A stretch of DNA of 64,000 nt from Planctomycetaceae bacterium (GCA_947453375.1 CANGGT010000001.1:11381-75380), one strand, 5' to 3'. Counted from the stretch's first letter, positions 11,659 to 39,165 are shown. Made by a program: numbers and translations. The notes: generated by a model not told the origin, from the letters alone.

Positions 11659-11662
11659 GGGA

Positions 11663-12625: not shown

Positions 12626-13553
12626 CGGCATCCCCTCCGGCGAGGATCGCATCGCAGCGCTCGAGCCAGCCGACGGCATGCCCCCCGAACCGCTCAGCCA
12701 GGGCAGCGATCCCCGGCCGCGACGCCCGGGCCATCTCGCGACGCATCTCCGGCGGCACCTCCGGCTTCACCCCGGCGGGATGGTGATCCCTCTTCCTCGC
12801 CTCCGCGAGCACCCGCGGCTCGTCGGGGTCGACGCCGAGAAAGGTCATCACGCGCCGAAGCATCCCCTCCGGATCGGCGAGGGTGTCGTCGTACCAGCCG
12901 ATGAAGAACCGCTCCTTTGGCACGTGCATCCCCCAGGTGTCGATCGTGCGGAGGTAGTCGTTGCGCGCGGTGACGTGGGCCGAGGCGAAGAATCGCGACA
13001 GATCGGCCGGCGGACCGAGGCCGGGGCCACGGGACGCCCGCGACAACATCTGCCACTGCGAGAGCGCCCGCGACAGTGGCTCGCGGAGCAAGAAGATCAC
13101 CTTCACGTCTGGAAACAGCCGGGTGACATGTCGGACACCGGCGTCATCGAGGAGGGCGTAGGCGGGGGTGATCTCCCCCTTGAGGCGCCCGGCCCCGGCG
13201 GCGAATTGACGCCGGTACCAGGCGTCGTTCTTCTTTCCCGGGAGAAGGTACGAGACCTCCCGCAGCAATTCCCATCCTGTCGCCATCGATATCCGACCGC
13301 GAACAGTCTTCTCGAAGGTCCATCCAACGCGCTGACGCCACTCCCGTTCCGCGGCGCCCCGGCCGAAGAGCCCGGACCACACACTCCTGACCTTCGTGAA
13401 CCGCGGGCCGAGGCCTGCGAGGCGATCGAAATAATGGAGCTCCTTCGTCCCGGGGAGGTGGAGCTGCGGATGCCGTCGTAGACACCGATAGAGCCAGGTG
13501 GTGCCGGCCCTCTGGGCACCGATGCCGAGAAAGTCGACGGTGGGGAGTGACAT
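12618..13553 (-). CDS. Sulfotransferase family protein
   Basis: Track ORF 12618..13622(-). Start moved to ATG 13553 so the product begins MSLPTVDFLGIGAQRAGTTWLYRCL (PAPS-binding loop). It also has the FLLREPLSRALSQW block typical of the family. Confidence 0.8.
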   Translation of the reverse strand: MSLPTVDFLGIGAQRAGTTWLYRCLRRHPQLHLPGTKELHYFDRLAGLGPRFTKVRSVWSGLFGRGAAEREWRQRVGWTFEKTVRGRISMATGWELLREVSYLLPGKKNDAWYRRQFAAGAGRLKGEITPAYALLDDAGVRHVTRLFPDVKVIFLLREPLSRALSQWQMLSRASRGPGLGPPADLSRFFASAHVTARNDYLRTIDTWGMHVPKERFFIGWYDDTLADPEGMLRRVMTFLGVDPDEPRVLAEARKRDHHPAGVKPEVPPEMRREMARASRPGIAALAERFGGHAVGWLERCDAILAGGDADG

Positions 13554-20849: not shown

Positions 20850-20978
20850 CCTGCCACCGCCGAAATCCCCGCGGCCGTGGCGGGAACGGCGATCGATTGG
20901 AAAGACCGGCGCGGTGTGCGATAGTGTCGGCTCGCCGGGCAGCGATCGCCCCCGGCCCCCTTGCGAAGGAAGACCGGC

Positions 20979-22172
20979 ATGAAGATCCACGAATACCAGG
21001 CCAAGGAACTCCTCCGGGCCGCCGGCGTGCCGGTGCTCGCAGGCAAAGTGGCCCGCACCCCCGACGAAGCCGCCGCCGCGTTTGCCTCCCTCGGCACGCC
21101 GATCTGCGCCGTGAAGGCCCAGATCCATGCCGGTGGCCGCGGCAAGGGAATGGTGAAGGGCTCGACGCAGCGCGGCGTGGAACTGGCCAAGAGCGCCGAT
21201 GACGCCGCTCGGATCGCCAAGGGCCTCCTCGATCAGACCCTCGTCACGATCCAAACCGGCCCCGAAGGACAGGTCGTCCGCCAGGTGTTCGTGGAGAGCG
21301 GGTGCGCGATCGAGCGTGAGCTCTACTGCGCGATCCTCGTCGACCGGCAGGCCGGGTCGCCGGTTCTGATCGCCAGCACCGCCGGCGGCATGGACATCGA
21401 GGAAGTGGCGCACAAGACCCCGGAACTGATCATCACCGAGCCGTTCGACCCTGACCGCGGCCTCTCCGCTTGGCAGACGCGCGTCCTGTCGGCCCGCCTC
21501 GGGCTCCCGGCAGCGAGTTGGAGGGCCGCGGAGCAGTTCTTCAAGGCGCTTACGAAGGCGTTCGTGAACCTCGATGCCTCGCTCCTCGAGATCAATCCGC
21601 TCGTCCTCACGAAGGACGGGACGATGGTCGCCCTCGACGCGAAGATGACGTTCGACGACAACGCGCTGTTCCGCCACAAGGACGTTCTCGCTCTCCGCGA
21701 CGAGAGCGAGGAGGAGCCGGCCGAGACGCGGGCCGCCGCAGCCGGGCTCTCCTATGTGAAGCTCAATGGCACGATCGGATGCCTCGTCAACGGCGCCGGC
21801 CTCGCCATGAGCACGATGGACCTCGTCAAATACCATGGCGGGGAACCGGCCAACTTCCTCGATGTCGGCGGTGGCGCGGACGTCAAGCAGGTCACCGAGG
21901 CGTTCCGGATCATCCTCTCCGACAAGAACGTCAAGGCGATCCTCGTCAACATCTTCGGCGGCATCATGCGTTGCACGACGATCGCCAACGCCCTCATCGA
22001 AGCCTCGAAGACCGTCGGCTTCACCGTCCCCCTCGTCGTCCGCCTCGAGGGGACCGAGGTCGAGGAAGGAAAGACGATCCTCGCCAACAGCGGCACGACG
22101 ATCATCACCGCCGACGGCCTCACCGACGCCGCCAAGAAGGTCGTCGCCGCCTCCAAGGGGCTCAAGGCCTGA
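20979..22172 (+). CDS. sucC: Succinyl-CoA synthetase beta subunit
   Basis: [13 protein letters not shown]-terminus, then [12 protein letters not shown]. Start set at ATG 20979 within track ORF 20961..22172. Confidence 0.95.
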
Positions 22173-22254
22173 TCGCCCGACGTCCGCCGCTCGTTGCTCC
22201 GTTCCAAGCCGAAATCCACTTCTCCCTCAACGCCTCCGGGGCCATCGCACCACC

Positions 22255-23141
<887 letters not shown>

Positions 23142-23142
<1 letters not shown>

Positions 23143-23858
23143 TGGACGTCGACCTCTTCATTCCCTGCTTCGTCGATCAGATGAACCCGCGGGTGGGAAT
23201 GGCCGTGGCCACGGTCCTCGAGCGCCTCGGCCATTCCGTCAACTTCCGCCCCGCCCAGACGTGCTGTGGCCAGCCGAGCTTCAACTCCGGCTACTGGGAC
23301 GAGGCCCGCACGGTCGCCATCCGGGCGCTCGATGTCTTCGAGGGGGCAGGCGCCGTCGTCGGCCCGAGTGGCTCCTGCGTGGCGATGATGCGCGTTTTCT
23401 ACCCGGAGCTCCTCGCCGGCACCCCGCACGAGCAACGTGCGCTCGATCTCGCCTCACGGACGTTCGAGTTCGGCGAGTTCCTCGTCGACCGCCTCGGTGT
23501 CACCGATGTCGGGGCCCGCTTCCCCCACCGCGTGACCTACCACGACGGCTGCCACGGCCTCCGTGAGCTGCGAATCAAAGCAGCGCCGCGAAAGCTCCTC
23601 GCAGCCGTCGGTGGGCTCGAGTTGGTCGAGTGCGACGAGCCGGAGAGTTGCTGTGGCTTCGGCGGGCTTTTCAGTGTGAAATTCCCGATGATCTCCACGG
23701 CGATGGCGGAGGTGAAGGCCGGGTCACTCGCCAGGACAGAGTGCGACTGGATCGTGTCGAGCGATCCGAGTTGCCAGCTCCAGATCGACGGCTGGCTCTC
23801 CCGCCAGGGGAAGAAGCCCCGCACGATCCATCTGGCCGAGGTGCTCGCCTCGACCTGA
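23142..23858 (+). CDS. lutA: L-lactate utilisation protein A (CCG-domain Fe-S oxidoreductase)
   Basis: 238-aa track ORF with two CCG motifs (QTCCGQPSFN, ESCCGFGG). The start overlaps the sucD stop (TAATG). Confidence 0.85.
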
Positions 23859-23870
23859 GCCCTTCGCGGA

Positions 23871-24824
23871 TCATGAAGCGGCAGACCGATGCCGCGATCC
23901 GACCAGCGCTTCCCAGGCGAATCCGGCCGCATTCGCTCCCTGCCAGATCCCGAAAGCCGCGAGGATCGCGAGGGTCCTGCCTGCGACGCGCGGATCGCCG
24001 CGCAGCGCCCGCAGCCGAGGCAGGATCGAGGCGTGGAAGCCGATGTCCTGGCGAATGCCTCCCGAACCACGTTCTTTTCTGCGACGATGATGGAGATAAG
24101 CCCCTCGTCCGTAACGGAAATGGAGGTCGGCGAACTTCCGCAGAGACTGGGCGTGGCGGTGTTCGATCCGCGCCGCCGGTTCCCAGACGAGCGGCCATCC
24201 TGCCATCTTCCACCGATCGCAGAAATCGCGGTCTTCGGCCCCGGCGCGGGGGAAGGTGACGTCGAAGCCGCCGAGGGCCTCGAAGCGCTGGCGCGTGCAG
24301 AGAATGTTGTTGCTGGTCAGGAACGTGGCCCGGGAGGGATCGGCGTTGAAGTGGTCGTAGACGAGGTCGACGATCAGTTGACTCGTGCTGGCGAACAATT
24401 CTCCGTTGAGCCCGTTGATCGTCGTGCCCCCGACCATCGCCCCAGGGGTGAGGGCCTCGCGGCGGAGGAGGGCGACGAGCCAGCCGGGCTCGGGCAGGCA
24501 GTCGTCGTCGGTGAAGGCGATGAATTGGCCCCGCGCGACGGCGACGCCGCGGTTACGGGCCCGGGCGGGCCCGGCATTCGCCTGACGCTCGAAGCGGAGA
24601 TCGAGCCGACCGCGAAACGCCTCGGCGATCGAGTCGAGCGGCTCCGGACTCCCGTCGTCGACGACCACCACCTCCCAGGGCGCCTCGCAGCGTTGCGCCG
24701 CCAGAGCCGTCAGGCAGGCAGCGAGTTGCCTCGGCCTGGAGTAGGTGGGGATGACGACGGTGAGGAGCGGAAGCGTCAACGGAGAACCTGGCACAGCTGG
24801 ATCGACTTGCTTCCCGGGTTTCAC
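23871..24824 (-). CDS. GT2-family glycosyltransferase
   Basis: 317-aa track ORF (GTG start; a later GTG or TTG is possible). Motifs: LLTVVIPTYSRP, VVVVDDGS, FTDDDC. Confidence 0.85.
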   Translation of the reverse strand: MKPGKQVDPAVPGSPLTLPLLTVVIPTYSRPRQLAACLTALAAQRCEAPWEVVVVDDGSPEPLDSIAEAFRGRLDLRFERQANAGPARARNRGVAVARGQFIAFTDDDCLPEPGWLVALLRREALTPGAMVGGTTINGLNGELFASTSQLIVDLVYDHFNADPSRATFLTSNNILCTRQRFEALGGFDVTFPRAGAEDRDFCDRWKMAGWPLVWEPAARIEHRHAQSLRKFADLHFRYGRGAYLHHRRRKERGSGGIRQDIGFHASILPRLRALRGDPRVAGRTLAILAAFGIWQGANAAGFAWEALVGSRHRSAAS

Positions 24825-24982
24825 GCCCGCGGGGCTCGCATACTGCCACTTGCCGAAGCGGCACCATGGTCAAGCAACGGGGCGATCGCCGCGGCAGTGT
24901 CGGCCAGGGCCCTGCCACTCAGTATCACAGGCCGACGAGCCCCGGGGCCCCCACCACTCGTGGGGGCGAAGGGCCGCTCGTC

Positions 24983-26362
24983 TTATTTCTTCGGCGCCGG
25001 CTTGAAGGGGTTGGCAGGCCCGGGGGGCGGTTTCGGCGTCTCGTTGGCACGCCCTGGCACCTCGACGGGAGGAGTCGGAGGAGGAGGCGTTGTCGGCTCA
25101 GGCGCCGGGACGGGCGGCTGACCGGCCGGCAGACCGGGCTGCTGCGGCACGCCTGGCTGCTGCGGCGCGGCGGGAGGCACGAGGGCCGCGGGCTGGCCGG
25201 GCTGCTTCGGGACGCCGGGGGGCGTTCCCGGTCCAGGCGCGGGTACGGCGGGGAACGTTTGCCCCGGCTGCGCCGGCTGACCAGGCGGGACGGTCGCAGC
25301 AGGGGGCGCCGTCACGCCAGGCTGGACCGGCACCGGCGGGGGAACCGGGGCGCCCGAAGGGACGACGCCCGGCACTTGCTGTTCGGGGACGCCGGCGGCA
25401 GGGTCGGTCAGGGCGGGACGCGCCGCGGGGGGCGTCACCCCCGGTCCGAGACCACCCGGCGGTGGATAGGGAAGCCCTTCCACCGGTCCGAGTTTCCCGT
25501 TTCGCTGCAGGCGCTGCACCTCCATCTTCGTAACCGTCCGTACCGTCACCCAGGGCCCGAGGGCGTACCGTTCGCGGAGCCCGATGTCGCGGGTCTTGTT
25601 CGTGTTGATGTCGTTGCTCCGCAGACACCAGGTGAAGGAGCCGTTGTCGTCGGCGTCGAGGTACTTCTCCCCCTCGTCCCACTGCTGGTTCCAGTTGACG
25701 TCGGCGTACACCTCGCTCCACTGCGGCAGTTCGATCTTCTCGAGCACCGGCTGCGACGGATCGACCGGGGCCGGCGGCGGTGCGGCCTTGGCGGAATCTT
25801 CCTTTTCGGCCCGGAAGCCCGGCTCCCCGTCCAGCATGATGCCCCGCTCCTCGCTCGACATCGACGGGGCACAGTGGCCGACCAGATCGATGATCCCTTG
25901 GCCGAGATCCCAGCCGAGCTTCGTGTGGTCGAAGGCCATCGACTCGGGGAGCGGTGCCATCGCGAGGATCACCTGAAGCGTGCCGGCGATGACGAGCCCG
26001 GCCAGCGCGCCGACGACGCCCCCACCGACCAGATCGACCAGCGGCGGATAGTTCGTCGCCCCCTCCTGGATCGCCCCCCCGACCGCCAGCCGGATGACGA
26101 TTGCCACGATCGCTACGCTCGTCACGAAGGCGATCGTCTGCCGCCAGATCATCGCGAACTCGTTGGTCATCCCGGCCCACATCAGCAACCCGTCGACATG
26201 GTCGGTGATCGCGAACGCGGCCACGACCGAGGCGAGGGCCTGGAGGCCCCAGACGGTGGCCAAGAACAGCCCGTAGCGCGAGCCGAGCCAGGCGATCAGG
26301 GCCACGATCAGGAGGGTGATCAGCCCCGCAGACTGTTGGAGGATCGAATCGGCGAACAGCAT
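24983..26362 (-). CDS. CvpA-like multi-pass membrane protein with an extended Pro-rich C-terminal tail
   Basis: Real start is ATG 26362 inside track ORF 24983..26686(-). The N-terminal ~140 aa have four hydrophobic spans resembling CvpA. The C-terminal ~160 aa are P/G/Q/V-rich (PGVPQQPGLPAGQPPVPAPEPTTPPPP). It lies 11 nt downstream of the GspE-like gene. Confidence 0.65.
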   Translation of the reverse strand: MLFADSILQQSAGLITLLIVALIAWLGSRYGLFLATVWGLQALASVVAAFAITDHVDGLLMWAGMTNEFAMIWRQTIAFVTSVAIVAIVIRLAVGGAIQEGATNYPPLVDLVGGGVVGALAGLVIAGTLQVILAMAPLPESMAFDHTKLGWDLGQGIIDLVGHCAPSMSSEERGIMLDGEPGFRAEKEDSAKAAPPPAPVDPSQPVLEKIELPQWSEVYADVNWNQQWDEGEKYLDADDNGSFTWCLRSNDINTNKTRDIGLRERYALGPWVTVRTVTKMEVQRLQRNGKLGPVEGLPYPPPGGLGPGVTPPAARPALTDPAAGVPEQQVPGVVPSGAPVPPPVPVQPGVTAPPAATVPPGQPAQPGQTFPAVPAPGPGTPPGVPKQPGQPAALVPPAAPQQPGVPQQPGLPAGQPPVPAPEPTTPPPPTPPVEVPGRANETPKPPPGPANPFKPAPKK

Positions 26363-26373
26363 CGGTATTCCCG

Positions 26374-28017
26374 TCACTTTGCCACCCGCTGCATCTCGCT
26401 GACGCTCGTGATCCCGGCGAGCACCTTGCCGACGCCCGATTCGAGGAGCGTCTTCATGCCCCCTTTGCGGGCCGCCTGACGGATCGTCTGCATCGAGGGG
26501 CGGCCGACGAGAAGCTCGCGGATCGAGTTGTCGAAGATCATCAGTTCGTGGAGGCCGGTGCGGCCGCGGAAGCCGGTGCCATGGCACGCCGGACATCCCT
26601 TCTCCTGGTAGACCGTCACGTCCTTCCCGACCGCGATCCCCCATTTCTGCTTGAGCTCGTCGGAGAGCTGGACGGCCTGCTTGCACTTCGGGCAGAGGAC
26701 GCGAACGAGCCGCTGGGCGAGGACTGCGGAGACGGCCGACTGGATGAGCGTCGCCTCGACACCGATGTCGAGGAGCCGGGTGATCGTGGTGGGGGCGTCG
26801 TTGGCGTGGAGCGTCGTGAACACGAAGTGGCCCGTCATCGCCGCCTGCATGGCGATCTCGGCCGTCTCCTTATCGCGGATCTCGCCGACGAGGATCACGT
26901 CCGGATCTTGCCGGAGCGTCGAGCGGAGGATCTTGGCGAAGGTCAGCTCGGCGGCAACGTTGACCGCGGTCTGCGAGATCCCCTCGAGCCGGTATTCGAT
27001 CGGGTCCTCGATCGTGATGATGTTCTTGGAATTGACGTCGATCTCCGAGAGCGCGGAGTAGAGCGTCGTCGTCTTGCCCGATCCGGTCGGCCCGCAGACG
27101 ATGAGCATGCCGTGCGGTTGCTGGATGATCTCGCGGAGCTGGGCGACGACCGAATCCTTCATGCCGATCGAGCCGAGCCCCCCCTTCACGATCCCGCCGT
27201 CGGCATCGAGGAGCCGCAGCGCCATCTTCTCGCCGAAGTTCGTCGGGGCCGAGGCAGCGCGGACATCGAAGCGCCTGTCCTCCATGAGGACGGTGAACGT
27301 CCCGTCCTGCGGGCGCCGCTTCTCGGCGATGTCCATGTCGCCGAGCACCTTCATCGCCGAGAGGACCGCCTTCCCCTCGTCGGCGGGAAAAGCCGCGATG
27401 TTCTGGAGGATCCCGTCGATGCGGCAGCGAACGACATACTCGTCGTTGCTCTTCGGCTCGCAGTGGATGTCGGTCGCCCGGAGGTCGACCGCCTTGAGGA
27501 ACATCTCCTGCACCGTCTTCACCGCCTGGGAAGTCTCGCGGTCGAGGCCCCCGCCCTTGCCGTCGACGGTGGTGCCGTCTTTTTTCAGGAGGACAATCCG
27601 CGGCGCCGGGCCGGTCCTCGTCAGGCCGCCCGATGCTCCCACCGGGAAGGCCCGGTCGAATTGCCGCTCGAGCCCGAGTCGGACGGCGAGTTTCCGCCCG
27701 GTCCGCCGGGCGAAGGTGGCCGAGAGGATTTTGTCGGTCGGCTTTGCCTTCGAGTCGCGAAGCGCCACATACCCCAGCGTGATGGCGGGGATGAGAAGGG
27801 CGAAGAGCACCAGCGGGCCGAGCCCGGCCTGCCAGGTGGCGAAGAAGAGGAGGAGGCCGACGGCCGCAAAGAGGAGATTCCAGGGGAGCGGGTTCCCGAA
27901 CACCTTTCGGGCATCCCGGTCGACCCACATGCAGATCGCCGCCCAGAGGGCCGCCAGGGCGACCCACAGGCCCCCCGTCCAGAGGAGTTGCTCGCCGAAT
28001 GATGGAGGTACGACCAC
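26374..28017 (-). CDS. GspE/PilB-family secretion ATPase with N-terminal transmembrane segments
   Basis: 547-aa track ORF with a GTG start. ATPase motifs: Walker A GPTGSGKTTT, Walker B DPDVILVGEIRD, His box TGHFVFTTLHAND, tetracysteine CPKC...CPAC. The first ~90 aa contain three hydrophobic helices. Confidence 0.9.
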   Translation of the reverse strand: MVVPPSFGEQLLWTGGLWVALAALWAAICMWVDRDARKVFGNPLPWNLLFAAVGLLLFFATWQAGLGPLVLFALLIPAITLGYVALRDSKAKPTDKILSATFARRTGRKLAVRLGLERQFDRAFPVGASGGLTRTGPAPRIVLLKKDGTTVDGKGGGLDRETSQAVKTVQEMFLKAVDLRATDIHCEPKSNDEYVVRCRIDGILQNIAAFPADEGKAVLSAMKVLGDMDIAEKRRPQDGTFTVLMEDRRFDVRAASAPTNFGEKMALRLLDADGGIVKGGLGSIGMKDSVVAQLREIIQQPHGMLIVCGPTGSGKTTTLYSALSEIDVNSKNIITIEDPIEYRLEGISQTAVNVAAELTFAKILRSTLRQDPDVILVGEIRDKETAEIAMQAAMTGHFVFTTLHANDAPTTITRLLDIGVEATLIQSAVSAVLAQRLVRVLCPKCKQAVQLSDELKQKWGIAVGKDVTVYQEKGCPACHGTGFRGRTGLHELMIFDNSIRELLVGRPSMQTIRQAARKGGMKTLLESGVGKVLAGITSVSEMQRVAK

Positions 28018-28273: not shown

Positions 28274-29773
28274 ATGCCCCCCCATCCGTCACCCACCGCG
28301 TCCCCCCACCCCGGCCATTCCGGCGATCCCGTCGGCGGTGCGCACGGGGCGAAGAAGCAGTTCCTCCGCGATGCGCGCGAGTATGTCCGCGACACCGACC
28401 ACCGCGCCTTCCTCCGCCGCGCCCTGGCGGGCTACTACACCACGCGCGACGGCCAAAAGGCGCGCTACCGCGACTGGGAGCACGCCCGCGACGCCGCCAA
28501 CCTCGCCAAGTGGAACGCCGTCAACCGGCTCGACGAGATGCTCGTCCGCTTCGCCGACACCTTCGAGGCCGGCGGCGGCAAAGTGCACTGGGCCCGCGAC
28601 GCGGCCGAGGCGCGTTCGATCATCCTCGGGATCGTCCGCGACGCGGGTGCCAAGGCGATCATCAAGAGCAAGTGCATGACGAGCGAGGAGATCCACCTGA
28701 ACGCCGCCCTCGAGGCCGAGGGCTACGGCGTGGTGGAGAGCGACCTCGGAGAGTTCATCCAGCAGCTCCGTGGCGAGCCCCCCTTCCACTTCGTCTTTCC
28801 CTGCATGCACGTCCGCCGTGGCGAGATCAGCAAGCTCTTCGAGGAGCACCTCGGCAGCGCGCCGACGGAGAGCCCCGAGGAGCTGACGATGATCGCCCGT
28901 CGCTACATGCGTCGGCTCTACGTCGAGGCCGACGTGGGGATCACGGGCGGCAATTTCCTCGTCGCCGAGACCGGCCAGATCTCGATCACCGAAAACGAAG
29001 GCAACGCCCGGCTCACCGCGGCGCTGCCGCGCGTCCACGTGGCGCTGGTGGGAATCGAGAAATGCGTGGAGCGGCTCGATGATCTCGCCGTTCTCCTCCC
29101 GATGCTCGCGACCGCCGGAACCGGCCAACCGATCACCTGCTACAACACCCTCTACGGCGGCCCCCGGGCCACCGGGGAATGCGACGGCCCGCGGGAGATG
29201 CACGTCGTCCTCCTCGACAACGGCCGCGCGGCGATCCTCGCCGATCCCGAGCAGCGAGATAGCCTCCAGTGCATCCGCTGCGGTGCCTGCCTCAACGTCT
29301 GCCCGATCTTCAAGAACGTCGGCGGCTTCACCTACGGCACCACCTACCAGGGGCCGATCGGCTCGGTGATCACCCCCCATCTCCGCGGCCTCGGTGACTG
29401 GAATCACCTTTCCCAGGCCAGTTCGCTGTGCGGCGCCTGCACCGACGCCTGTCCGGTGCGGATCGACATCCACCACCATCTCCTCCACAACCGGCGCAAT
29501 GCCGTCCGGGCTGCGCCGAACCGCATCGAGCGGATGGGCCACCGGATGTTCGCCGCCGTCGCCGCGCGGCCGCAACTGTTTGCCGCCGGCGGAGCGCTGT
29601 TTCGCCGTTCGCTCTGGCTCTTGAAGAAACTCCGGCTGCCGCTGCTGCGTGACTGGATCGCGAGCCGCGATCTGCCGGGGGCTCCGGCGCGGAGCTTCCG
29701 CGACCAATGGCGCCATCGCGCCGCCCCGGCGGTGGCCCGCAGTCGCCCGAGCACCGGCGGGGGTGCCCGATGA
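28274..29773 (+). CDS. lutB: L-lactate utilisation protein B (4Fe-4S, LUD domain)
   Basis: 499-aa track ORF. Ferredoxin-type cluster motifs CIRCGACLNVCP and CGACTDACP, and an LUD-type block ITGGNFLVAETGQISI. Confidence 0.9.
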   Translation: MPPHPSPTASPHPGHSGDPVGGAHGAKKQFLRDAREYVRDTDHRAFLRRALAGYYTTRDGQKARYRDWEHARDAANLAKWNAVNRLDEMLVRFADTFEAGGGKVHWARDAAEARSIILGIVRDAGAKAIIKSKCMTSEEIHLNAALEAEGYGVVESDLGEFIQQLRGEPPFHFVFPCMHVRRGEISKLFEEHLGSAPTESPEELTMIARRYMRRLYVEADVGITGGNFLVAETGQISITENEGNARLTAALPRVHVALVGIEKCVERLDDLAVLLPMLATAGTGQPITCYNTLYGGPRATGECDGPREMHVVLLDNGRAAILADPEQRDSLQCIRCGACLNVCPIFKNVGGFTYGTTYQGPIGSVITPHLRGLGDWNHLSQASSLCGACTDACPVRIDIHHHLLHNRRNAVRAAPNRIERMGHRMFAAVAARPQLFAAGGALFRRSLWLLKKLRLPLLRDWIASRDLPGAPARSFRDQWRHRAAPAVARSRPSTGGGAR

Positions 29774-30534
29774 ACGCCCGCGATGCGATTCTCGCCCGGG
29801 TTCGGGAGGCGCTCACCGTTCCCGGTCCTGGGCCCCATCAGCGTGCCGGGGAGATGGCCGGCCACGGAGCCGCCCCCCATCCGGCGCCTCCGCCGCTCGG
29901 CAGCCTGCCGGTGCTCGCGCTCGAGGCCGCGCGTCCCTGGCTCCCCGACGGCGGCGCCACCCCGGAAGAGCGGCTGTCCCTGCTCGCCGACAATCTCGGC
30001 AAGCTCAAGGCCGTGTTCCACTGTGTGCCGACGATCCACGCCGCGCAAGATCTCCTCTTTTCGATCGCCCGCGAGCGCGACTGGAAGCGCGTCGCCTGGC
30101 ACGCCCATCCGCTCGTCGAGCCGATCCTCGCAGGCATCCCGTGCGCGACGCACAAAGTCGACTCAGCCGCTGGGGTGGTGGCCGATCTCGCCACCGACGC
30201 CGGCGCCCGCAAGGACGCCCTCGAGGCCTGCGACGCCGGCATCACCGGCTGCGAGGCGCTCGTCGCCCAGACCGGCTCGATCCTCGTCTCGAGCGCCACC
30301 TGCGGGGGCCGGGCACTGTCGGTGCTGCCGCCGGTGCATGTCGTCGTCGCCACGCCCGAGCAGATCGTGGCAACCCTCGCCGACGCCTTCGACGCCCTCC
30401 GCGAGCGGCACGGGAAGTCTCTCCCGAGCATGCTCTCCTTCATCACCGGCCCGAGTCGCACCGGCGACATCGAGCGGATCCTCGTCCTCGGCGCCCATGG
30501 GCCGAAGGAACTGATCGTGATCCTCGTCGGTTGA
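29770..30534 (+). CDS. lutC: L-lactate utilisation protein C (LUD domain)
   Basis: Start at ATG 29770 (ATGA overlap with the lutB stop) within track ORF 29707..30534. Motifs: MNARDAILARVREAL, ITGCEALVAQTGSILV. Confidence 0.85.
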   Translation: MNARDAILARVREALTVPGPGPHQRAGEMAGHGAAPHPAPPPLGSLPVLALEAARPWLPDGGATPEERLSLLADNLGKLKAVFHCVPTIHAAQDLLFSIARERDWKRVAWHAHPLVEPILAGIPCATHKVDSAAGVVADLATDAGARKDALEACDAGITGCEALVAQTGSILVSSATCGGRALSVLPPVHVVVATPEQIVATLADAFDALRERHGKSLPSMLSFITGPSRTGDIERILVLGAHGPKELIVILVG

Positions 30535-30895: not shown

Positions 30896-31693
30896 ATGAA
30901 CAGCTTCTTCGCTTCAGCGGCTCGTGTGTGGTGCCGAGTCGGTGCTACTGCGTTCGTCCTCGTGTCCCTCACCAACGTTGCTTCCGCCGTGAGTGTGGCC
31001 ACCAACACGCTCAACAACCCGGCTCTGCCACTCAAAGTTTCGTTGTCGCACACCGGCAGCGGACCGGGCTCACGGACCGACATCATCACTCATGCCCAGC
31101 CTTTCCATTTGAGCCCGGTCGGTTCGCAAGGGGACATCATCCGAGGCGTGGAGGCTTACACGCATGGCCTTCAAATGGATCCGCAGAATCTCCGCATCGG
31201 CATCTATGCGAACATGGTCGACTTTCAACAACTCCAGCCCCCGGCGATCGGCACCATCGCCGTCGATGTTCCGGACCTCAGCACCGCACTGATCGAGTTC
31301 GGGACACCGACGGTGACCACCTTCTCCGACGTTTCGGGAACTTCCTGGACCGCCAGATTCACCCCGCGTGTGTTGAGCAACCACTTCCTTCCGTCGAACG
31401 CTTCCCCCTACTGGATCGTCTATTCGCTCGTCGCCGACCAAGAGCTTTTCTTGGACGGGGTCGCGTCCGGCTTGCCCTTCCCCGAGTCGACCCGGGCCGA
31501 GTACTTCTTCAACGGCAGTGACCCCGTGACCCCATCGTGGGTCACCCAGGGCCGTGCCGTCGCCGCGTCGATCGAGTACGTCGCCGTCCCCGAGATCGAC
31601 CCGAGCAGTTTCGGCAGTGCCCTGTCGCTTGTCGTCGGCGCGATCGCGCTTTGCGAACGGCGCCGCCTCCGCGGGTGTGCGTCGGCCTCCTGA
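30896..31693 (+). CDS. Secreted PEP-CTERM sorting-domain protein
   Basis: 265-aa track ORF. It has an N-terminal signal peptide (VGATAFVLVSLTNVASA) and a C-terminal VPEIDPSSFGSALSLVVGAIALCERRRLRG (PEP motif + TM + basic cluster). It uses visibly more A/T-ending codons than its neighbours. Confidence 0.75.
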   Translation: MNSFFASAARVWCRVGATAFVLVSLTNVASAVSVATNTLNNPALPLKVSLSHTGSGPGSRTDIITHAQPFHLSPVGSQGDIIRGVEAYTHGLQMDPQNLRIGIYANMVDFQQLQPPAIGTIAVDVPDLSTALIEFGTPTVTTFSDVSGTSWTARFTPRVLSNHFLPSNASPYWIVYSLVADQELFLDGVASGLPFPESTRAEYFFNGSDPVTPSWVTQGRAVAASIEYVAVPEIDPSSFGSALSLVVGAIALCERRRLRGCASAS

Positions 31694-32749: not shown

Positions 32750-33007
32750 ATGTCCACGTTCCTCGTCTGGGCCGCCATGGCCCTCTCTCCCCTGGCTGGT
32801 GGTCAGACCGCATCGTGCGGCCTGTGTGACGCCTGCGAATGCTGCGGTTGCTGCGAGAGCGGCGCCTGCACGTGCAGCGAGTGCCGCTGCTCCTGCTGTG
32901 AGGCCGGTGCCTCCCAGACAGAGGGCTGCTGCACCGTGAGCGCTGCGGCCGATCGTGCCCTCCAGGCCGAGCAGGCCGGCTGCTGCGGCAGCGGCTGCTG
33001 CAAGTAA
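32750..33007 (+). CDS. Small extremely Cys-rich peptide (85 aa, 19 Cys), metallothionein-like composition
   Basis: Track ORF with a strong SD (AAGGAG at 32737-32742, 7 nt before the ATG). Hydrophobic N-terminus MSTFLVWAAMALSPLAGG, then SCGLCDACECCGCCESGACTCSECRCSCCE...GCC...GCCGSGCCK. A terminator follows at 33081-33125. Confidence 0.65.
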   Translation: MSTFLVWAAMALSPLAGGQTASCGLCDACECCGCCESGACTCSECRCSCCEAGASQTEGCCTVSAAADRALQAEQAGCCGSGCCK

Positions 33008-33125: not shown

Positions 33126-33473
33126 GACGCCGCACTGCGCTCTGCCTCGCGCTCACCGGCGCGCGTCGCCGCCACAGCGGCGCTCGCCCGCTACGACCGG
33201 AATCCTCGTCACGGTCGGATCTTTTCGAGCCCCAGTGAGTTTTCCGACTGGGAAAGATCGATCTCCTGTCCAGGAGTTTGCCGCTCGCGCAAACCCTGAC
33301 GATCACGGTGATCTCGCCACGTACCGGCGACGTGCACGGCAGGGGAATAAAGCGGCGGGCTCGGTCGGTGCGGAGCTGTGGCACGCCTTCCATCTGGGGT
33401 GGGCGGGCCAGGCGACGGACCGGCCAAGTGTTCGCGAACCGTTTCCTTTTTTTCTTTCCATCCGGAGGATTCT

Positions 33474-35081
33474 GTGAAGAAGCGTTTGACGTTCGGCTTC
33501 CTGCCCTGGGTTGCCGCTGTTGCCATCTGTTCCGGCAGCGGTTTTTCCCACGGTCAGGAGTCCGTGATCGAGGCCGGCTCGGTTCTTGCCAACGGTGGCG
33601 TGGCTCACACCGAGCCCGCGATCGTCGAGGGTGAGGCCGCCGCGCCGTCCGCTGCGGAGGGTGCCATCGTTAGCGAAGGCGCCATCGTCAGCGAGGGTGC
33701 CGCCGCCGGTGGTGCCACCCGCAAGGTGCTCCGCCGCGAGTGGGTCACCGAAACCCGTGACGTCAACGTCACGGAGTATGTCCAGGAGCAGCGTGAGCGG
33801 TCCTACACCGTCACGAAGCGCGTCCCCCGCACCGAGCAGCGGACCCGCGAGTACACGGTGAACGTGCCCGAGACGCGCACCAAGACGGTGAACTACACCG
33901 TCAACACGACCGTTCCGGAAACCCGCACCCGTGAGTACACGGTCAAGGTTCCCTACACGGAGACGATCGAGCAGAACTACACCGTGATGGTCCCGGTCAA
34001 GGAAGAGAAGAGCCGGAGCTGGACGGTGAAGGTCCCCTACACCGAGTCCGTCGAGCAGGCGTACACGGTGAACGTGCCGGTCAAGGAAGAGAAGACGGCG
34101 ACCTACACGGTGAAGGTTCCCTACACCGAGCAGCGTTCGGCCAGCTACACGGTCCGGGTTCCGTACACCGAGCAGGTCGAGGAGACCTACACGGTGCGCG
34201 TTCCCTACACCGAGCAGATGACCGGCTACCGCACGGTCAGCAAGCGGGTTCCCGTCAAGGAGATGAAGACGGTCTCCGTGAAGGGCGGCCACTGGGAGAC
34301 CAGCGCCAAGGAGATCTCCGCGAACGGCAAGTATGACGCCGAGGGCAACCCCTGCTGCCCGAAGACGGTCTGCTGCCGCACGTGGGTCCCGACCTGCGAG
34401 TCGAAGGAAGTCGAGACCACCCGGTGGGAGTGCACCACGGAGCAGGTGCCCTACACCTACTGCGTGACGAAGAGCCGCTGCGAAACCCGCTCGCGCACCA
34501 AGTGCGTGACGAAGTTCCGCTGCGAGGAGCGGACCCGGAACTACTGCGTGACCCTGTCGCGCTGCGAGACCCGGACCCGCAACTACTGCGTCACGAAGAT
34601 GGTCCCCGAGACCCGGACCCGGACGGTGAAGGTGCAGAAGTGCCGTGACGAGATCCGCACCGGCACCTACTGCGTGACGAAGATGGTTCCCGAGACCCGC
34701 ACGAAGAGCGTGTGCGTGAAGAAGTTCCGTTGCGAGACGCGGACCGCTTCCTACACGGTCAACAAGTGTGTCCCCGAGACCCGTTCGAAGGAAGTGTGCT
34801 ACACGGTGATGGTCCCGCAGCAGCGGACGGCCAACTACTGTGTCACCCTCTATGACAACGTCTGCGAGACGAAGACCTGCTCCTACACGGTGTGCGTGCC
34901 GAAGTGCGTCACCAAGCAGATCCAGGTCAAGGTTTGCCGGACGGTTTGCGAGGAAGTCCCCTGCGATGCTTGCTCGGGCTGCTCGAGCGACGCTGACGCC
35001 TGCGGTTGCGGCAACGGCAACGCCGGCAAGGCCAAGGGCCACAAGGGCTGCGGTCTCCTCCGCTGCCGCAAGGGCTGCTGA
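33474..35081 (+). CDS. YTV-repeat protein (Planctomycete cell-wall-type), Cys-rich C-terminal half
   Basis: Start at GTG 33474 (GGAGG at 33464-33468) within track ORF 33378..35081. It has a signal peptide, then many YTVxVP(Y/E)TE repeats, then repeats of YCVTK/RCETR type with ~30 Cys. It ends CDACSGCSS...CGCGNG...GCGLLRCRKGC. Confidence 0.85.
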   Translation: MKKRLTFGFLPWVAAVAICSGSGFSHGQESVIEAGSVLANGGVAHTEPAIVEGEAAAPSAAEGAIVSEGAIVSEGAAAGGATRKVLRREWVTETRDVNVTEYVQEQRERSYTVTKRVPRTEQRTREYTVNVPETRTKTVNYTVNTTVPETRTREYTVKVPYTETIEQNYTVMVPVKEEKSRSWTVKVPYTESVEQAYTVNVPVKEEKTATYTVKVPYTEQRSASYTVRVPYTEQVEETYTVRVPYTEQMTGYRTVSKRVPVKEMKTVSVKGGHWETSAKEISANGKYDAEGNPCCPKTVCCRTWVPTCESKEVETTRWECTTEQVPYTYCVTKSRCETRSRTKCVTKFRCEERTRNYCVTLSRCETRTRNYCVTKMVPETRTRTVKVQKCRDEIRTGTYCVTKMVPETRTKSVCVKKFRCETRTASYTVNKCVPETRSKEVCYTVMVPQQRTANYCVTLYDNVCETKTCSYTVCVPKCVTKQIQVKVCRTVCEEVPCDACSGCSSDADACGCGNGNAGKAKGHKGCGLLRCRKGC

Positions 35082-35343: not shown

Positions 35344-36042
35344 ATGCCCTCCGTCCATGCCAATCGTCGATCGAGCGCTGCCAGCGAGTCGCGCGGCCGG
35401 CCGATTGTTTTCGCCAGTCTCCTCCTGGCCCTTCTCCTCGGGCTCATCTCGGCCGGCGCCTGGTGGGGGGGATGGTTCGGCGCCAAGGAGGATCCGCGGC
35501 TCACCGAGGTGAAGACCGTGATGGCAGATGCGGCGGCGAAGTATCCGCCCGATCAAGCCCCCAAGAACATGCTCGAAACCGCCGCCCGGGTCGGGACGAT
35601 GGTGAGCGTCATGGCGAAGATCCAGGCGCTTCCGGAAGACCTCCGTCCGAAGGCGATGGAGGAAGGGCGGAAGCTGATGATGAAGGGGATGGAGGCGCGG
35701 GTCGACTCCTACTTCGCCGCCCCGCCGGATCAGCGTCAGAAGCTCATCGACGACCAGCTCAAGCAAATGCAATCGATGCAGAAGGCCTTCGAGGGGAGCC
35801 GATCGATGTTCCAAGGTCTCGGCGGAGGCCAGGGGGGCGGCGGGGGCGGCGGCGGCAACCAACAGGCAGCCGGTGGGCCGGGGCCACGTTCCGAGGAGGA
35901 TCGCAGCGCCTGGCGGAAGCGGATGATCGACGGATCGTCCCCGAGCCAGCGGGCCCGCTGGACCGAATACTTCGGCGAGGTCGAGAAGCGTCGCCAAGCC
36001 CTCGGCATGGGTGGCGGCGGCGGGCCGTTCGGACCACGTTGA
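35344..36042 (+). CDS. Hypothetical N-terminally anchored protein with a Gly-run
   Basis: Start at ATG 35344 (AGGAG at 35329-35333) within track ORF 35170..36042. It has a TM segment IVFASLLLALLLGLISAGAWW, K/E/M/Q-rich helical regions and GLGGGQGGGGGGGGNQQ. I recognise no family. Confidence 0.6.
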   Translation: MPSVHANRRSSAASESRGRPIVFASLLLALLLGLISAGAWWGGWFGAKEDPRLTEVKTVMADAAAKYPPDQAPKNMLETAARVGTMVSVMAKIQALPEDLRPKAMEEGRKLMMKGMEARVDSYFAAPPDQRQKLIDDQLKQMQSMQKAFEGSRSMFQGLGGGQGGGGGGGGNQQAAGGPGPRSEEDRSAWRKRMIDGSSPSQRARWTEYFGEVEKRRQALGMGGGGGPFGPR

Positions 36043-36082
36043 GGAGGATCACTCCCGGCGACCACGACGAAGGATCCCCCAC

Positions 36083-36544
36083 ATGCAACACTGGCTGCTC
36101 AAGAGCGAACCGGACTGCTTCTCGATCGACGCTCTCCGCAAGGCGAAGAAACAGACGACCTGCTGGGACGGCGTGCGGAACTACCAGGCCCGCAACTTCC
36201 TCCGCGCGATGAAAGTCGGTGATCGCGCCTTCTTCTACCACTCCAGCTGCGATCCCCCGGCGGTCGTCGGGGTCGTCGAGATCGTCCGCGAGGCCTATCC
36301 CGACTCGAGCGCCTGGAATCCCGACGACGACCACTACGATCCCAAGGCTTCCCCCGAGAATCCGGTCTGGTCGATGGTCGACGTGAAGCTCGTCGAGGTC
36401 TTTCCGCGGCCGGTTCCGCTCGACGAACTCCGGGGCGTGAAGGCCCTGGCCGGCCTGGAACTCCTCCGCCGCGGCAGTCGGCTCTCGGTCCATCCCGTGA
36501 CGGCGGCCGAGTTCCGCACGATCGAGCAGCTCGGCTGCGGGTGA
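36083..36544 (+). CDS. EVE (PUA-like) domain protein
   Basis: Start at ATG 36083 within track ORF 36011..36544. Motifs: MQHWLLKSEPDCFSIDAL, WDGVRNYQARNFLR, GDRAFFYHS. Confidence 0.85.
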   Translation: MQHWLLKSEPDCFSIDALRKAKKQTTCWDGVRNYQARNFLRAMKVGDRAFFYHSSCDPPAVVGVVEIVREAYPDSSAWNPDDDHYDPKASPENPVWSMVDVKLVEVFPRPVPLDELRGVKALAGLELLRRGSRLSVHPVTAAEFRTIEQLGCG

Positions 36545-36595
36545 TGTCGGTGGACGGCCCATCCCCACGCCGGCCGGCATGGCCATAATGTCGGC

Positions 36596-37810
36596 ATGAC
36601 CTGCCGCCCGCCATTCACCGCTCCCCAGCGCCCCGCTGCCATCGCCGGGCTCCCGGAGCCCCTGGCCTGGATCGACGCGGGGCTCGAGAGCCTCCGTCGC
36701 GACGGCCTCGAGCGGCCCCGGCGTATCCGTGCAGGGCGGCAGGGGAGGGTGGTCGAGCTCGACGGCCGGGCGCTTCTCAACTTCGGCTCCAACGACTACC
36801 TCGGGCTGGCTGGCGATGTCCGGCTGACGAAGGCCGCCTCGAGGGCTGCGTGCGCCGAGGGCTTCGGCTCGGGGGCGAGCCCGCTGGTGAGCGGCCACTC
36901 CTCCATCCACGCGGCCCTCGAGGCGGCACTCGCGGATCTCCTCGGCACCGGCGACGCGCTCCTCTTTCCGTCGGGATTCGCCGCCAACGCTGCCACGATC
37001 GCGGCGCTCGTCGGCCCCGGCGATGTCGTTTTCAGCGACGAGCGCAATCACGCGAGCATCATCGATGGCTGTCGGCTGTCGCGCGCGGCGGTGGCCGTCT
37101 TCCCCCACCGCGATGTCGCCACCCTCGACCGGCTCCTGACCGCCGCGACGGGACGCCGGCGGCTGATCGTCACCGACAGCCTGTTCTCGATGGATGGCAC
37201 GATCGCGCCGCTTTCCGATCTCGCCGCCGTCGCATTCCGCCACGGCGCCATCCTCATGGTCGACGAGGCCCATGCCACCGGCGTGTTCGGAACGCGCGGA
37301 AGCGGCCTGGTCGAGGCGAGTGGCACCGCAGACGGCGTTCACGTCCGCGTCGGCACGCTCTCGAAGGCGCTGGGGTCGGCCGGAGGCTTCGTCGCCGGCC
37401 ACCCGCGCCTCGTCGACTGGCTGCGACACTCCGCGCGGGCCTGGGTCTTCTCCACAGCCCACCCCCCCGCCGTGGCCGGCGCGGCGCTGTGCGCGGTGGA
37501 GTTCCTCGCAACCGAGCCCCATCGTCGCACCACGCTCCTCGGAAGGGCGACGGCGTTCCGCGATCGGCTCCGGGCCGCCGGCCTCGATCTCGGCGATGCG
37601 GCCGCCCAGATCGTGCCGGTGATCGTGGGGAGCGCTGACGGCGCGGTCGCGCTGGCGGCGCGGCTCGCCGACGACGGCCTGTTCGTCCCGGCCATCCGTC
37701 CGCCGAGCGTCCCGTCCGGGGGGAGCCTCGTCCGCGCGAGCCTCGCCTGCCCTCACACCGACGCCGATCTCGATCGCCTTGCCCGCGCCCTCACCGAGGG
37801 CCAGGGATGA
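36596..37810 (+). CDS. bioF: 8-amino-7-oxononanoate synthase
   Basis: 404-aa track ORF. Motifs: NFGSNDYLGL, SLFSMDGTIAPL, VDEAHATG and the PLP-lysine block GTLSKALG. Confidence 0.9.
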   Translation: MTCRPPFTAPQRPAAIAGLPEPLAWIDAGLESLRRDGLERPRRIRAGRQGRVVELDGRALLNFGSNDYLGLAGDVRLTKAASRAACAEGFGSGASPLVSGHSSIHAALEAALADLLGTGDALLFPSGFAANAATIAALVGPGDVVFSDERNHASIIDGCRLSRAAVAVFPHRDVATLDRLLTAATGRRRLIVTDSLFSMDGTIAPLSDLAAVAFRHGAILMVDEAHATGVFGTRGSGLVEASGTADGVHVRVGTLSKALGSAGGFVAGHPRLVDWLRHSARAWVFSTAHPPAVAGAALCAVEFLATEPHRRTTLLGRATAFRDRLRAAGLDLGDAAAQIVPVIVGSADGAVALAARLADDGLFVPAIRPPSVPSGGSLVRASLACPHTDADLDRLARALTEGQG

Positions 37811-39165
37811 GCGGTCAGGGAGCCGTCGACGACGGGTGGTGCGTCATCGGCGCGGGCCCCTCGGGCCTGACGGCGCTCAAGAATCTCCTCGCGCTCGGGA
37901 TCCGCGCCGTCTGCCTCGAACGGGAGGACGACATCGGCGGCAACTGGTATTTCGGCTCCGGTGCCTCGGCAGTGTTCGCATCGACGCGGCTGATCAGTTC
38001 GAAATCGCTCACCGCCTTCACCGACTTTCCGATGCCGCGGCAGTGGCCCGCCTACCCCGACCACGCTCGCTGCCTCGCCTATCTCCGCGCCTACGCCGAC
38101 CACTTCGCGCTCCGGCCCCACATCCGCACGCACGCTCCGGTCGAGGCCGTCACGCCCCGCCCTGGGGGCGGCTGGACGGTCTCGAGCGGCGACGGATCGA
38201 TCGTGTGTCGCGGCCTCGTGATCGCCAACGGCCACAACCACACCCCGCGCTGGCCCGAGATTCCCGGGAGCTTCGCCGGGCCGTTCCTCCACGCCTGTCA
38301 GTACAAGTCGCCGGTCGATCCGGTGGCGATCGCGGGAAAACGCGTCCTCGTCATCGGCGGGGGCAACTCCGGCAGCGACATCGCCGTGGAGTGCTCCCGG
38401 CACGCCGCCCGCACCGTCCACTCGACGCGCCGCGGCTACCATGTCGTGCCGCGATTCATCATGGGCCGCCCCTCCGATGTCCGCGGCGAGCGGCTCCTGG
38501 CGATGGGAGCGCCGGCATGGCTGCGCCGCTTCGTGAGCCTCCGCGCCATCGACCGAGCGATCGGTCTTTCCTGGAAACACGGGCTCCCCCGCCCCGATCA
38601 CCGGCTCTGGGACAGCCATCCGGTGATCAACTCGGAGATCCTCGGCCGGATCGACTCTGGCGCCCTCGTGCCGCGCGGCGACGTGCGCCTTTTGAAAGGC
38701 GACGTGGCGACGTTTGCCGACGGCTCGCGGGAATCGTTCGATGTCGTGATCTGCGCCACCGGCTACGTCCTCTCCCTGCCCTTCATCGACTCCGCCCACC
38801 TCCATCCCATCGACGGCGCCCCGCGGCTCTTCCTCCACACGCTCCATCCCACGCGTGACGACATTGCCGTCTGCGGACTGATCCAGCCCGACAGCGGTCA
38901 ATGGGGCCTCACCGATCTCCAGGGGCAGCTCATCGCCCGGATGGCCCTGGCAACGGAGCGTTCGCCCCACGCCGCGGCGTTCCTCCATCGCAAGCGGAGC
39001 CGACCGGGCGACGGCATTCCCCGCCCCGCCGGCATCGACTACGTCGACAGCCCACGGCACCGCTTCGAGGTCGAGCACCACGCCTACCGTCGCCGCCTGG
39101 AAGCGCTGATCGCCGCCACTGACCGGAGGCTCCGCCGCGACGGCGCCCTGCGGTCAGGGATCTGA
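37807..39165 (+). CDS. Flavin-containing monooxygenase (FMO/BVMO-like)
   Basis: 452-aa track ORF with an ATGA overlap with bioF. It has the FAD GxGxxG (VIGAGPSGL), the FMO motif FAGPFLHACQY (FxGxxxHxxxY) and the NADPH GxGxxG (VIGGGNSGSD). Confidence 0.85.
   Translation: MSGQGAVDDGWCVIGAGPSGLTALKNLLALGIRAVCLEREDDIGGNWYFGSGASAVFASTRLISSKSLTAFTDFPMPRQWPAYPDHARCLAYLRAYADHFALRPHIRTHAPVEAVTPRPGGGWTVSSGDGSIVCRGLVIANGHNHTPRWPEIPGSFAGPFLHACQYKSPVDPVAIAGKRVLVIGGGNSGSDIAVECSRHAARTVHSTRRGYHVVPRFIMGRPSDVRGERLLAMGAPAWLRRFVSLRAIDRAIGLSWKHGLPRPDHRLWDSHPVINSEILGRIDSGALVPRGDVRLLKGDVATFADGSRESFDVVICATGYVLSLPFIDSAHLHPIDGAPRLFLHTLHPTRDDIAVCGLIQPDSGQWGLTDLQGQLIARMALATERSPHAAAFLHRKRSRPGDGIPRPAGIDYVDSPRHRFEVEHHAYRRRLEALIAATDRRLRRDGALRSGI

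Follow-up and report, generated by a model that had tools for sequence, protein, structure and literature searches.

The 64,000-nucleotide stretch of DNA analyzed here (the window; Planctomycetaceae bacterium, GCA_947453375.1 CANGGT010000001.1:11381-75380) carries on its minus strand, at positions 23871-28017, three co-directional genes, which according to the list of open reading frames (ORFs) encode in this order a membrane-anchored ATPase of the PilB/GspE class, a CvpA-like membrane protein, and a glycosyltransferase of family 2 (GT2). The ATPase gene (26374..28017), identified from the ORF list and the Pfam T2SSE match, has a GTG start codon and encodes 547 amino acids. Its stop codon is followed after 11 nt by the gene of the CvpA-like protein (24983-26362; 459 amino acids; ORF list), referred to below as the partner, and after a further gap of 158 nt by the GT2 gene (23871..24824), the 317-residue product of which matches Pfam PF00535 with 88.4 bits against a cut-off of 23.3 and has no transmembrane (TM) segment. 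The window has a G+C content of ~69% and encodes the Planctomycetes-specific Pfam families YTV, PSCyt1/2, PSD1, and DUF1501; its nearest relatives are metagenome-assembled genomes (MAGs) of uncultured freshwater Planctomycetes labelled Planctomycetaceae or Pirellulales. On the coding strand of the ATPase/partner pair, we observed neither an internal terminator-like site nor a sigma-70-like promoter, in a scan that is uninformative for Planctomycetes promoters.

The catalytic part of the ATPase, comprising the N2 domain and the C-terminal core (residues 163-547 plus stop codon; 26374..27531, minus strand), was delimited by the alignment with GspE (4pht), by Foldseek, and by its motifs. Residues 163-544 correspond to Pfam T2SSE (PF00437) with 399.3 bits against a cut-off of 24.9 (E = 1.7e-119). 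The Walker A motif (GPTGSGKTT), the Asp box (IITIEDPIEY), the Walker B motif (DPDVILVGEIRD), and the His box (GHFVFTTLHAN) are intact, and the zinc tetracysteine CPKC...CPAC (C442, C445, C475, and C478) is invariant across 55 sequences, so that the signatures of secretion ATPases listed in the initial annotation of this stretch are all present. More than 120 homologues of ~545 amino acids cover 95-100% of the query length with 61-95% identity. In the clade of the window, represented by a 17-sequence alignment with 61-88% identity, every catalytic residue is invariant; this complete conservation of the catalytic site argues for an active enzyme there.

In the Protein Data Bank (PDB), the closest sequence matches were GspE from Vibrio (334 bits), PilF from Thermus (327 bits), and PilB from Geobacter (316-319 bits), all of which cover only residues 156-547 or less, none of them spanning the first ~160 residues; Vibrio GspE (4pht), for instance, aligns to residues 163-547 with an E-value of 1e-98. 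The AlphaFold2 model of the monomer, computed from the 55-sequence alignment, has a mean predicted local distance difference test (pLDDT) score of 86.8. The top Foldseek match of the modelled core is the core of Thermus PilF (5oiu), with a TM-score of 0.94 normalized to the target and a root-mean-square deviation of 1.8 Å over 384 columns at 44% identity, and among the PDB fold matches listed the alignment is confined to the ATPase core. With the curated NCBIfam equivalog models, the ATPase reached 464.1 bits against the cut-off of 630.25 for GspE (TIGR02533), in a match beginning at profile position 109 and ATPase residue 165, and 436 bits against 675.65 for PilB (TIGR02538), covering only profile positions 177-562. 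Because both cut-offs were missed widely, the ATPase is placed by its sequence in the PilB/GspE class but in neither of the two named families. Known anti-phage defence systems gave no PADLOC match, the scores remaining at the P-loop level of 17 bits or less, and we rejected a defence role on that basis.

PilB/GspE-type ATPases are soluble motors that reach the membrane only via partner proteins, and in GspE it is the N1 domain that docks onto the cytoplasmic domain of GspL. In the window ATPase, a three-helix membrane anchor stands in place of this soluble docking domain (residues 1-90; 27748..28017, minus strand). Hydropathy analysis located three hydrophobic segments at residues 11-32, 44-66, and 68-86, and AlphaFold2 modelled helices at residues 5-39, 46-64, and 69-90 with high confidence. 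A basic linker, delimited from the same model and the alignments, follows at residues 91-162 (27532..27747, minus strand); it consists of two short basic helices (100-123), a disordered stretch (127-139), and a conserved LLKKDGT-x-VDG motif, in which K146, D147, and G148 are invariant (alignments A1 and A2), and leads into the N2 domain. The claim that three TM helices replace the usual N-terminal domains holds for N1; N2 is present from residue 163 on. The ATPase is thus self-anchored, and its N-terminal domain is real and under selection, as indicated by the three modelled helices and by an invariant signature of W25, W31-x3-D35, W46, and Y83-x3-R87, found in 55 sequences down to 27% identity. 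Lysine and arginine residues number none in the N-terminal stretch, three in loop 1, none in loop 2, and eleven after the third TM helix, a distribution fitting a predicted topology with the N-terminus outside, the C-terminus inside, and the ATPase domain in the cytoplasm. D35, W46, Y83, and R87 are predicted to lie near the cytoplasmic ends of the helices.

That the hydrophobic N-terminus could be an artefact of a misassigned start codon, a caveat of the initial annotation, has next to no probability. The start codon is indeed a GTG, and an ATG is present at codon 30. However, the frame is closed by a TGA only two codons ahead of the GTG at 28017, which is the first start codon after this stop; W18, W25, and C29, all upstream of M30, are invariant in the 17-sequence alignment, W25 even in all 55 sequences; and the full-length homologues mentioned above align across 95-100% of the query. 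The upstream stop and the invariant residues before M30 fix the start at GTG 28017, and we rejected the wrong-start explanation.

Searched alone, the N-terminal domain had no Pfam match better than E = 0.005 and only noise up to E = 10, and no Pfam or NCBIfam model covers this region. A profile of the domain retrieved only 60 matches at an E-value of 1e-3 or better from 1.84 billion representative proteins, and a T2SSE match was present in 10 of the 10 near-full-length matches tested (507-622 amino acids); the T2SSE match of P0229 is marginal (26.2 bits, E = 3.9e-06). The domain is thus specific to the membrane-anchored ATPase family. We also considered its origin from the CvpA-like domain, which was rejected with an hhalign probability of 0.2%. 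All family members derive from metagenomes or MAGs. The domain was seen only in records labelled as Planctomycetes, apart from a few evidently mislabelled MAGs, and the named carriers are MAGs of Gemmatales and Planctomycetaceae. Several MAG records containing the locus (for example, L020) go under the name 'Candidatus Kuenenia stuttgartiensis' and one under 'Chitinophagaceae'; these labels are probably wrong because the sequences are 90-95% identical to freshwater Planctomycetaceae/Pirellulales MAGs.

The partner starts with a CvpA-family domain of four TM helices (residues 1-140; 25943..26362, minus strand), as indicated by Colicin_V matches, alignments, hydropathy, and AlphaFold2. Orthologous partners at six loci (L001, L056, L058, L059, L060, and L061) carry an unmarked match to Colicin_V/CvpA (PF02674) on record, and D110, G113, G114, G118, G122, and G127 are conserved (alignments A4 and A7), resembling the aspartate followed by a glycine-rich helix that is the hallmark of the CvpA family (bioRxiv 10.1101/2020.09.25.314492). 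We assigned the window partner to CvpA because of the matches of its orthologues and this Asp/Gly motif. The CvpA-like neighbour of the initial annotation was accordingly borne out in its position 11 nt downstream, its four TM helices, and its proline-rich tail, while the family match of the window protein itself is sub-threshold, with 18 bits against 29.3. CvpA homologues have been reported from 55 bacterial phyla. CvpA matters for enteric pathogens colonizing the gut; it has no known biochemical function, and its C-terminus, predicted to be periplasmic, is variable in length and required for function (bioRxiv 10.1101/2020.09.25.314492). The charge bias of the partner fits a predicted topology with both termini outside, as for CvpA.

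The TM domain of the partner is followed by an acidic, predicted periplasmic region (residues 141-290; 25493..25942, minus strand), recognized from invariant alignment columns. It contains three EF-hand-like loops that are invariant in alignment A7, namely D221-x-N-x-N-x3-D-x2-E232, D236-x-D-x-N-G-x-F243, and D251-x-N-x-N...R258-D259, and may bind calcium. The soluble region belongs to no Pfam family, giving only noise at E-values up to 10, and a homologue search with its 100-residue soluble region returned no candidates. The disordered tail at residues 291-459 plus stop codon (24983..25492, minus strand) was defined by composition and pLDDT: proline makes up 35% of the last 174 residues, pLDDT is below 50 for residues 313-456, and a C-terminal motif, PGRANETPKP...PFKPAPKK, is conserved (alignment A4). 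The partner model gave no match with an E-value below 0.9 in a fold search of the PDB, the model itself being of low confidence.

We examined the conservation of the gene pair in 48 species-level genome loci fetched with the N-domain query and in six metagenome loci from homologue look-ups. In all loci with the lut/suc neighbourhood that could be tested by tblastn (51 of 51), the CvpA-like gene lies directly downstream of the ATPase gene, with gaps of at most about 110 nt, except for one species with 200 nt and one mis-called start. All loci of sufficient length share the same order, in which lutC-lutB on the opposite strand precede the ATPase and CvpA-like genes and lutA-sucD-sucC, again on the opposite strand, follow them; this order persists down to 29-35% identity of the ATPase N-domain with that of the window. 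In the window, the inverted ATPase/CvpA-like pair separates sucC-sucD-lutA (20961-23858) from lutB-lutC (28274-30534), all of these flanking genes being on the plus strand. The lutA-like gene with a CCG domain (23142..23858, plus strand), supported by tblastn and by Pfam CCG matches of orthologues, forms the convergent flank of the pair and is conserved in the clade, and the lutB- and lutC-like genes (28274..30534, plus strand), supported by tblastn and by Pfam LUD_dom and Fer4 matches of orthologues, form its conserved divergent flank. As the split is conserved in all related species-level loci of the lut type, an ancestral sucCD-lutABC array seems to have received the pair as a single unit. 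A mobile cassette was considered for the inverted position, and no direct or inverted flanking repeats of note were found. The window genes for an EVE-domain protein, an aminotransferase, and an FMO-like monooxygenase (35927-36544, 36545-37810, and 37639-39165, plus strand) have counterparts in identical order close to the pair in L003, the EVE-domain gene also in L001, and the order common to L003 indicates that lineage synteny reaches well beyond the pair.

The pairing also survives where this neighbourhood is gone. At eight of eight distant loci, which have unrelated neighbourhoods without lut genes and ATPases 27-51% identical overall to that of the window, a CvpA-like gene of 200-390 amino acids directly follows the ATPase gene; seven of these partners have a Colicin_V match, and the eighth is a 210-residue protein with no match on record. 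Persistence through a full turnover of the neighbourhood is the standard genomic signature of a functional unit, and the coupling of the two genes is therefore far stronger than the initial annotation could tell. The divergence of the N-domain correlates with that of the partner TM domain with a Spearman rho of 0.83 (0.82 after removing LutB), above the flanking genes, and in the distant subset with a rho of 0.50 versus 0.10 for LutB, without correction for phylogeny. This covariation is weak evidence that the two proteins act as a module. As far as the searches reach, the module is restricted to Planctomycetes.

How does this pair compare with known systems? With GspE/EpsE from Vibrio (4pht, 1p9r, and 4ksr), the ATPase shares the N2 domain and the C-terminal ATPase core at about 42% identity, including the Walker A and B motifs, the Asp and His boxes, and the tetracysteine zinc site, and presumably forms a hexamer likewise; in contrast, it lacks the GspL-binding N1, the place of which is taken by the three-TM anchor, and stays at 464 bits below the equivalog cut-off of 630. 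Unlike in type II secretion, no gspC-M, gspD, or gspF genes are found near it, and its invariant neighbour belongs to the CvpA family. PilB/PilF (Thermus 5oiu/5it5 and Geobacter 5tsh/5zfr) provide the top structural match to the modelled core, and in some distant members a PilT-family gene adjoins the ATPase gene, as in pilB-pilT-pilC operons. The window ATPase nevertheless differs from them in lacking the MshEN/GSPII N-terminal domains and being membrane-integral instead, in its 436 bits against a cut-off of 676, and in having a CvpA-like gene at the place expected for pilC and no pilins nearby.

The partner, in turn, shares with CvpA (PF02674) of E. coli and others the four inner-membrane helices, the conserved aspartate, the glycine-rich helix, and a predicted periplasmic C-terminus of variable length. 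It is, however, very divergent, has a 320-residue C-terminal extension, and is encoded by a gene tied to the ATPase gene, whereas E. coli cvpA lies in a cvpA-purF context. Another comparison is offered by MarP (Rv3671c) from Mycobacterium tuberculosis, for which no ATPase partner is known and which combines, like the window partner, a four-helix membrane domain with a C-terminal functional domain; the latter is a serine protease in MarP but an acidic, proline-rich region in the window partner. Four N-terminal TM helices have been described for MarP (PMC12183614). The partner encoded at L056 has a weak NCBIfam match to the N-terminus of the MarP family. In layout only, the partner is also analogous to TonB and TolA, in which an inner-membrane anchor leads via a long spacer rich in proline to a conserved C-terminus; there is no sequence similarity, and the tail occurs only in the clade of the window. 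It is proton-motive-force stators (ExbBD and TolQR), and not an ATPase, that drive TonB and TolA. We found no account of a membrane-anchored PilB/GspE protein or of a PilB/CvpA gene pair in the full-text literature, in which subscription journals are thinly covered, leaving the absence unproven.

We consider the chances about even (a probability of roughly 0.5) that the two genes constitute a conserved module of a motor ATPase and a membrane partner and represent a novel variant among the type IV filament ATPases. The first gene encodes a hexameric-type PilB/GspE-class ATPase in which a three-helix anchor replaces N1, with the N-terminus predicted outside and the ATPase domain in the cytoplasm. 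The second encodes a four-helix inner-membrane protein of the CvpA family, predicted to have both termini outside. This domain architecture, its conservation, and the invariant pairing of the genes are shown by the data, whereas we infer that the proteins touch each other, in which direction energy flows, and what it acts on in the envelope. The ATPase ring might be anchored through its own helices and touch the CvpA-like protein within the bilayer, which would be the simplest geometry because the cytoplasmic loops of the partner comprise only a few residues. The CvpA-like protein could thereby take the place of partners of the GspL/GspF/PilC type, and ATP-driven domain movements might pass to it and onward, through the C-terminal portion that it exposes to the periplasm, to the envelope. 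In the lineage of the window, the EF-hand-like acidic region and the proline-rich spacer with its conserved basic end motif might serve as a periplasm-spanning arm. The more far-reaching proposal, that the ATPase and its CvpA partner form a self-sufficient, pilin-independent inner-membrane machine with CvpA as platform or transducer, is tentative, and we regard it as possible rather than probable.

Several observations weigh against the two-gene motor module. With both termini of the partner outside, the cytoplasmic loops are tiny and the coupling must be intramembrane, for which, to our knowledge, there is no precedent in the PilB/GspE ATPase family. The CvpA assignment of the window partner rests below the Pfam threshold, its AlphaFold2 model has low confidence outside the TM helices, and the proline-rich tail and the EF-hand-like region are restricted to the clade of the window, the tail being absent from the ~200-residue partners at distant loci. 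In four of the eight distant loci, a T2SSE gene of 370-403 amino acids lies directly upstream of the ATPase gene, as would suit a role in a pilus-like apparatus with its other genes located elsewhere. Finally, catalytic motifs are lost in several distant members, and the family as a whole therefore cannot function through ATP-driven work.

According to the main rival explanation, the ATPase is an additional or substitute extension motor working in an ordinary type IV pilus or type II secretion system, the platform (PilC/GspF), pilins, and secretin of which would be encoded in other parts of the genome; the TM anchor would merely substitute for docking via PilM/GspL, and the CvpA-like protein would act as an accessory or regulator. 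We judge it rather unlikely, although it would account for a core equally close to GspE, PilF, and PilB with intact catalytic motifs. The upstream T2SSE genes speak for it as well, since those in L056, L058, and L059 belong to the PilT family (381-391 bits against the NCBIfam PilT/PilU cut-off of 319) and a fourth distant contig has a 403-residue T2SSE gene in the equivalent position. The resulting order of pilT-like, TM-pilB-like, and cvpA-like genes recalls pilT/pilB/pilC operons with the CvpA-like gene at the pilC place, and pilus genes are often dispersed through genomes. On the other hand, we detected no Pfam match to T2SSF, pilins, or secretins among the 30 other window ORFs scanned, in agreement with the initial annotation, which had recognized no platform, pilin, or secretin gene in the window. 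Nor was any found within 8-10 kb in 14 Pfam-annotated contigs, six of the lut type and eight distant, so that the GspF/PilC partners that had been envisaged just outside the operon in relatives are absent from this range. The CvpA-like gene is the sole invariant partner, and the GspE and PilB equivalog cut-offs were both missed.

The degenerate members bring up another explanation, namely that the pair is a sensor or regulator in which the PilB-like protein is a nucleotide-binding scaffold, catalytically dead in many lineages, that together with CvpA signals stress of the envelope or ion stress, or acts as a modulator of a PilT next to it. Walker A, Walker B, and the His box are degenerate in seven members (P0200, P0221, P0215, P0208, P0206, P0201, and P0185), the first six being the most distant members of the family, and the His-box histidine is lost in P0179 and P0186. 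The TM signature and the four zinc cysteines are invariant in all degenerate members. Three of these lie directly behind a PilT-like gene, two of which are confirmed as PilT family by NCBIfam, which suggests that a degenerate member may be a pseudo-ATPase paired with an active PilT-like ATPase. Since the window clade keeps every catalytic residue, the family holds presumably active enzymes alongside probable pseudo-enzymes. A regulatory role is also suggested by E. coli CvpA, which has a genetic link to the sigma-E envelope stress response and has been compared with the MscS/MscL channels (bioRxiv 10.1101/2020.09.25.314492). Against it stand the invariance of all catalytic residues in the 17 sequences of the window clade and the lack of a signalling output domain in either protein, and we consider this explanation improbable.

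A three-gene unit of ATPase, CvpA-like protein, and GT2 for the synthesis and export of polysaccharides is, in our estimate, highly improbable. The three genes are co-directional in the window, as had been annotated, the pair is followed by a different GT2 gene in L058, and both the window and its relatives have rml genes, RgpF, GT2, GT4, and an ABC exporter of the Wzm/Wzt type within ~10-15 kb. Nevertheless, only the five closest relatives have the GT2 gene in this place (L007, L009, L014, L015, and L040), the ATPase N-domains of which are at least 94% identical, and was absent in the tblastn survey from all other loci extending past the CvpA-like gene; this limited distribution points to a recent addition. 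The gap of 158 nt and the lack of a TM segment further argue against a common unit, as do the sucCD and lutA genes standing between the glycan genes and the pair. The GT2 proteins of the window and L058 share only generic similarity (27 bits), and it was the phyletic pattern together with this lack of specific similarity that led us to reject GT2 as a member of the unit. The GT2 gene next in line is thus a genuine Pfam GT2 but, on its distribution, a lineage-specific neighbour outside the conserved module, and the conserved trio proposed in the initial annotation is not borne out.

With GT2 as a bystander, the picture of the operon is corrected to a pair, and two unannotated domains are defined, the TM domain of the ATPase with its W/D/Y/R signature and the acidic EF-hand-like region of the partner. 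If the two-gene motor module is real, a membrane-built motor with an obligate four-helix partner would alter the view of the minimal working unit of PilB/GspE motors. The invariant link to an ATPase also offers a testable hypothesis for the function of CvpA-type proteins. Should the pair prove to be a self-sufficient machine, it would give the widespread but functionally unexplained CvpA family its first mechanistic role and add to the superfamily of type IV filament motors a new branch that performs envelope work without a filament.

Other genes of the window have unusual features of their own. An 824-codon stop-to-stop frame (9256-11730, minus strand) joins a domain like the Wzt/TagH ABC ATPases (residues ~70-270) to a cytochrome P450 domain at the C-terminus (~440-822) and represents either an unusual fusion or two neighbouring genes in one frame; it adjoins an ABC-2 permease gene (11663-12766, minus strand) amid sulfotransferases and glycosyltransferases. 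The 265-residue protein encoded at 30896-31693 (plus strand) has a signal-peptide-like N-terminus and the C-terminal sequence VPEIDPSSFGSALSLVVGAIALCERRR and matches the VPEID-CTERM sorting domain weakly, scoring 17.5 bits where the cut-off is 33. An 85-residue ORF (32750-33007, plus strand), the product of which is hydrophobic at the N-terminus and otherwise very rich in cysteine, with CC and CxC runs, has no NCBIfam match and sits in a 1.6-kb stretch of lower G+C content without a confident gene call. Downstream of it, at 33378-35081 (plus strand), a 567-residue protein has seven of the Planctomycetes-specific YTV repeats and a cysteine-rich C-terminal half.

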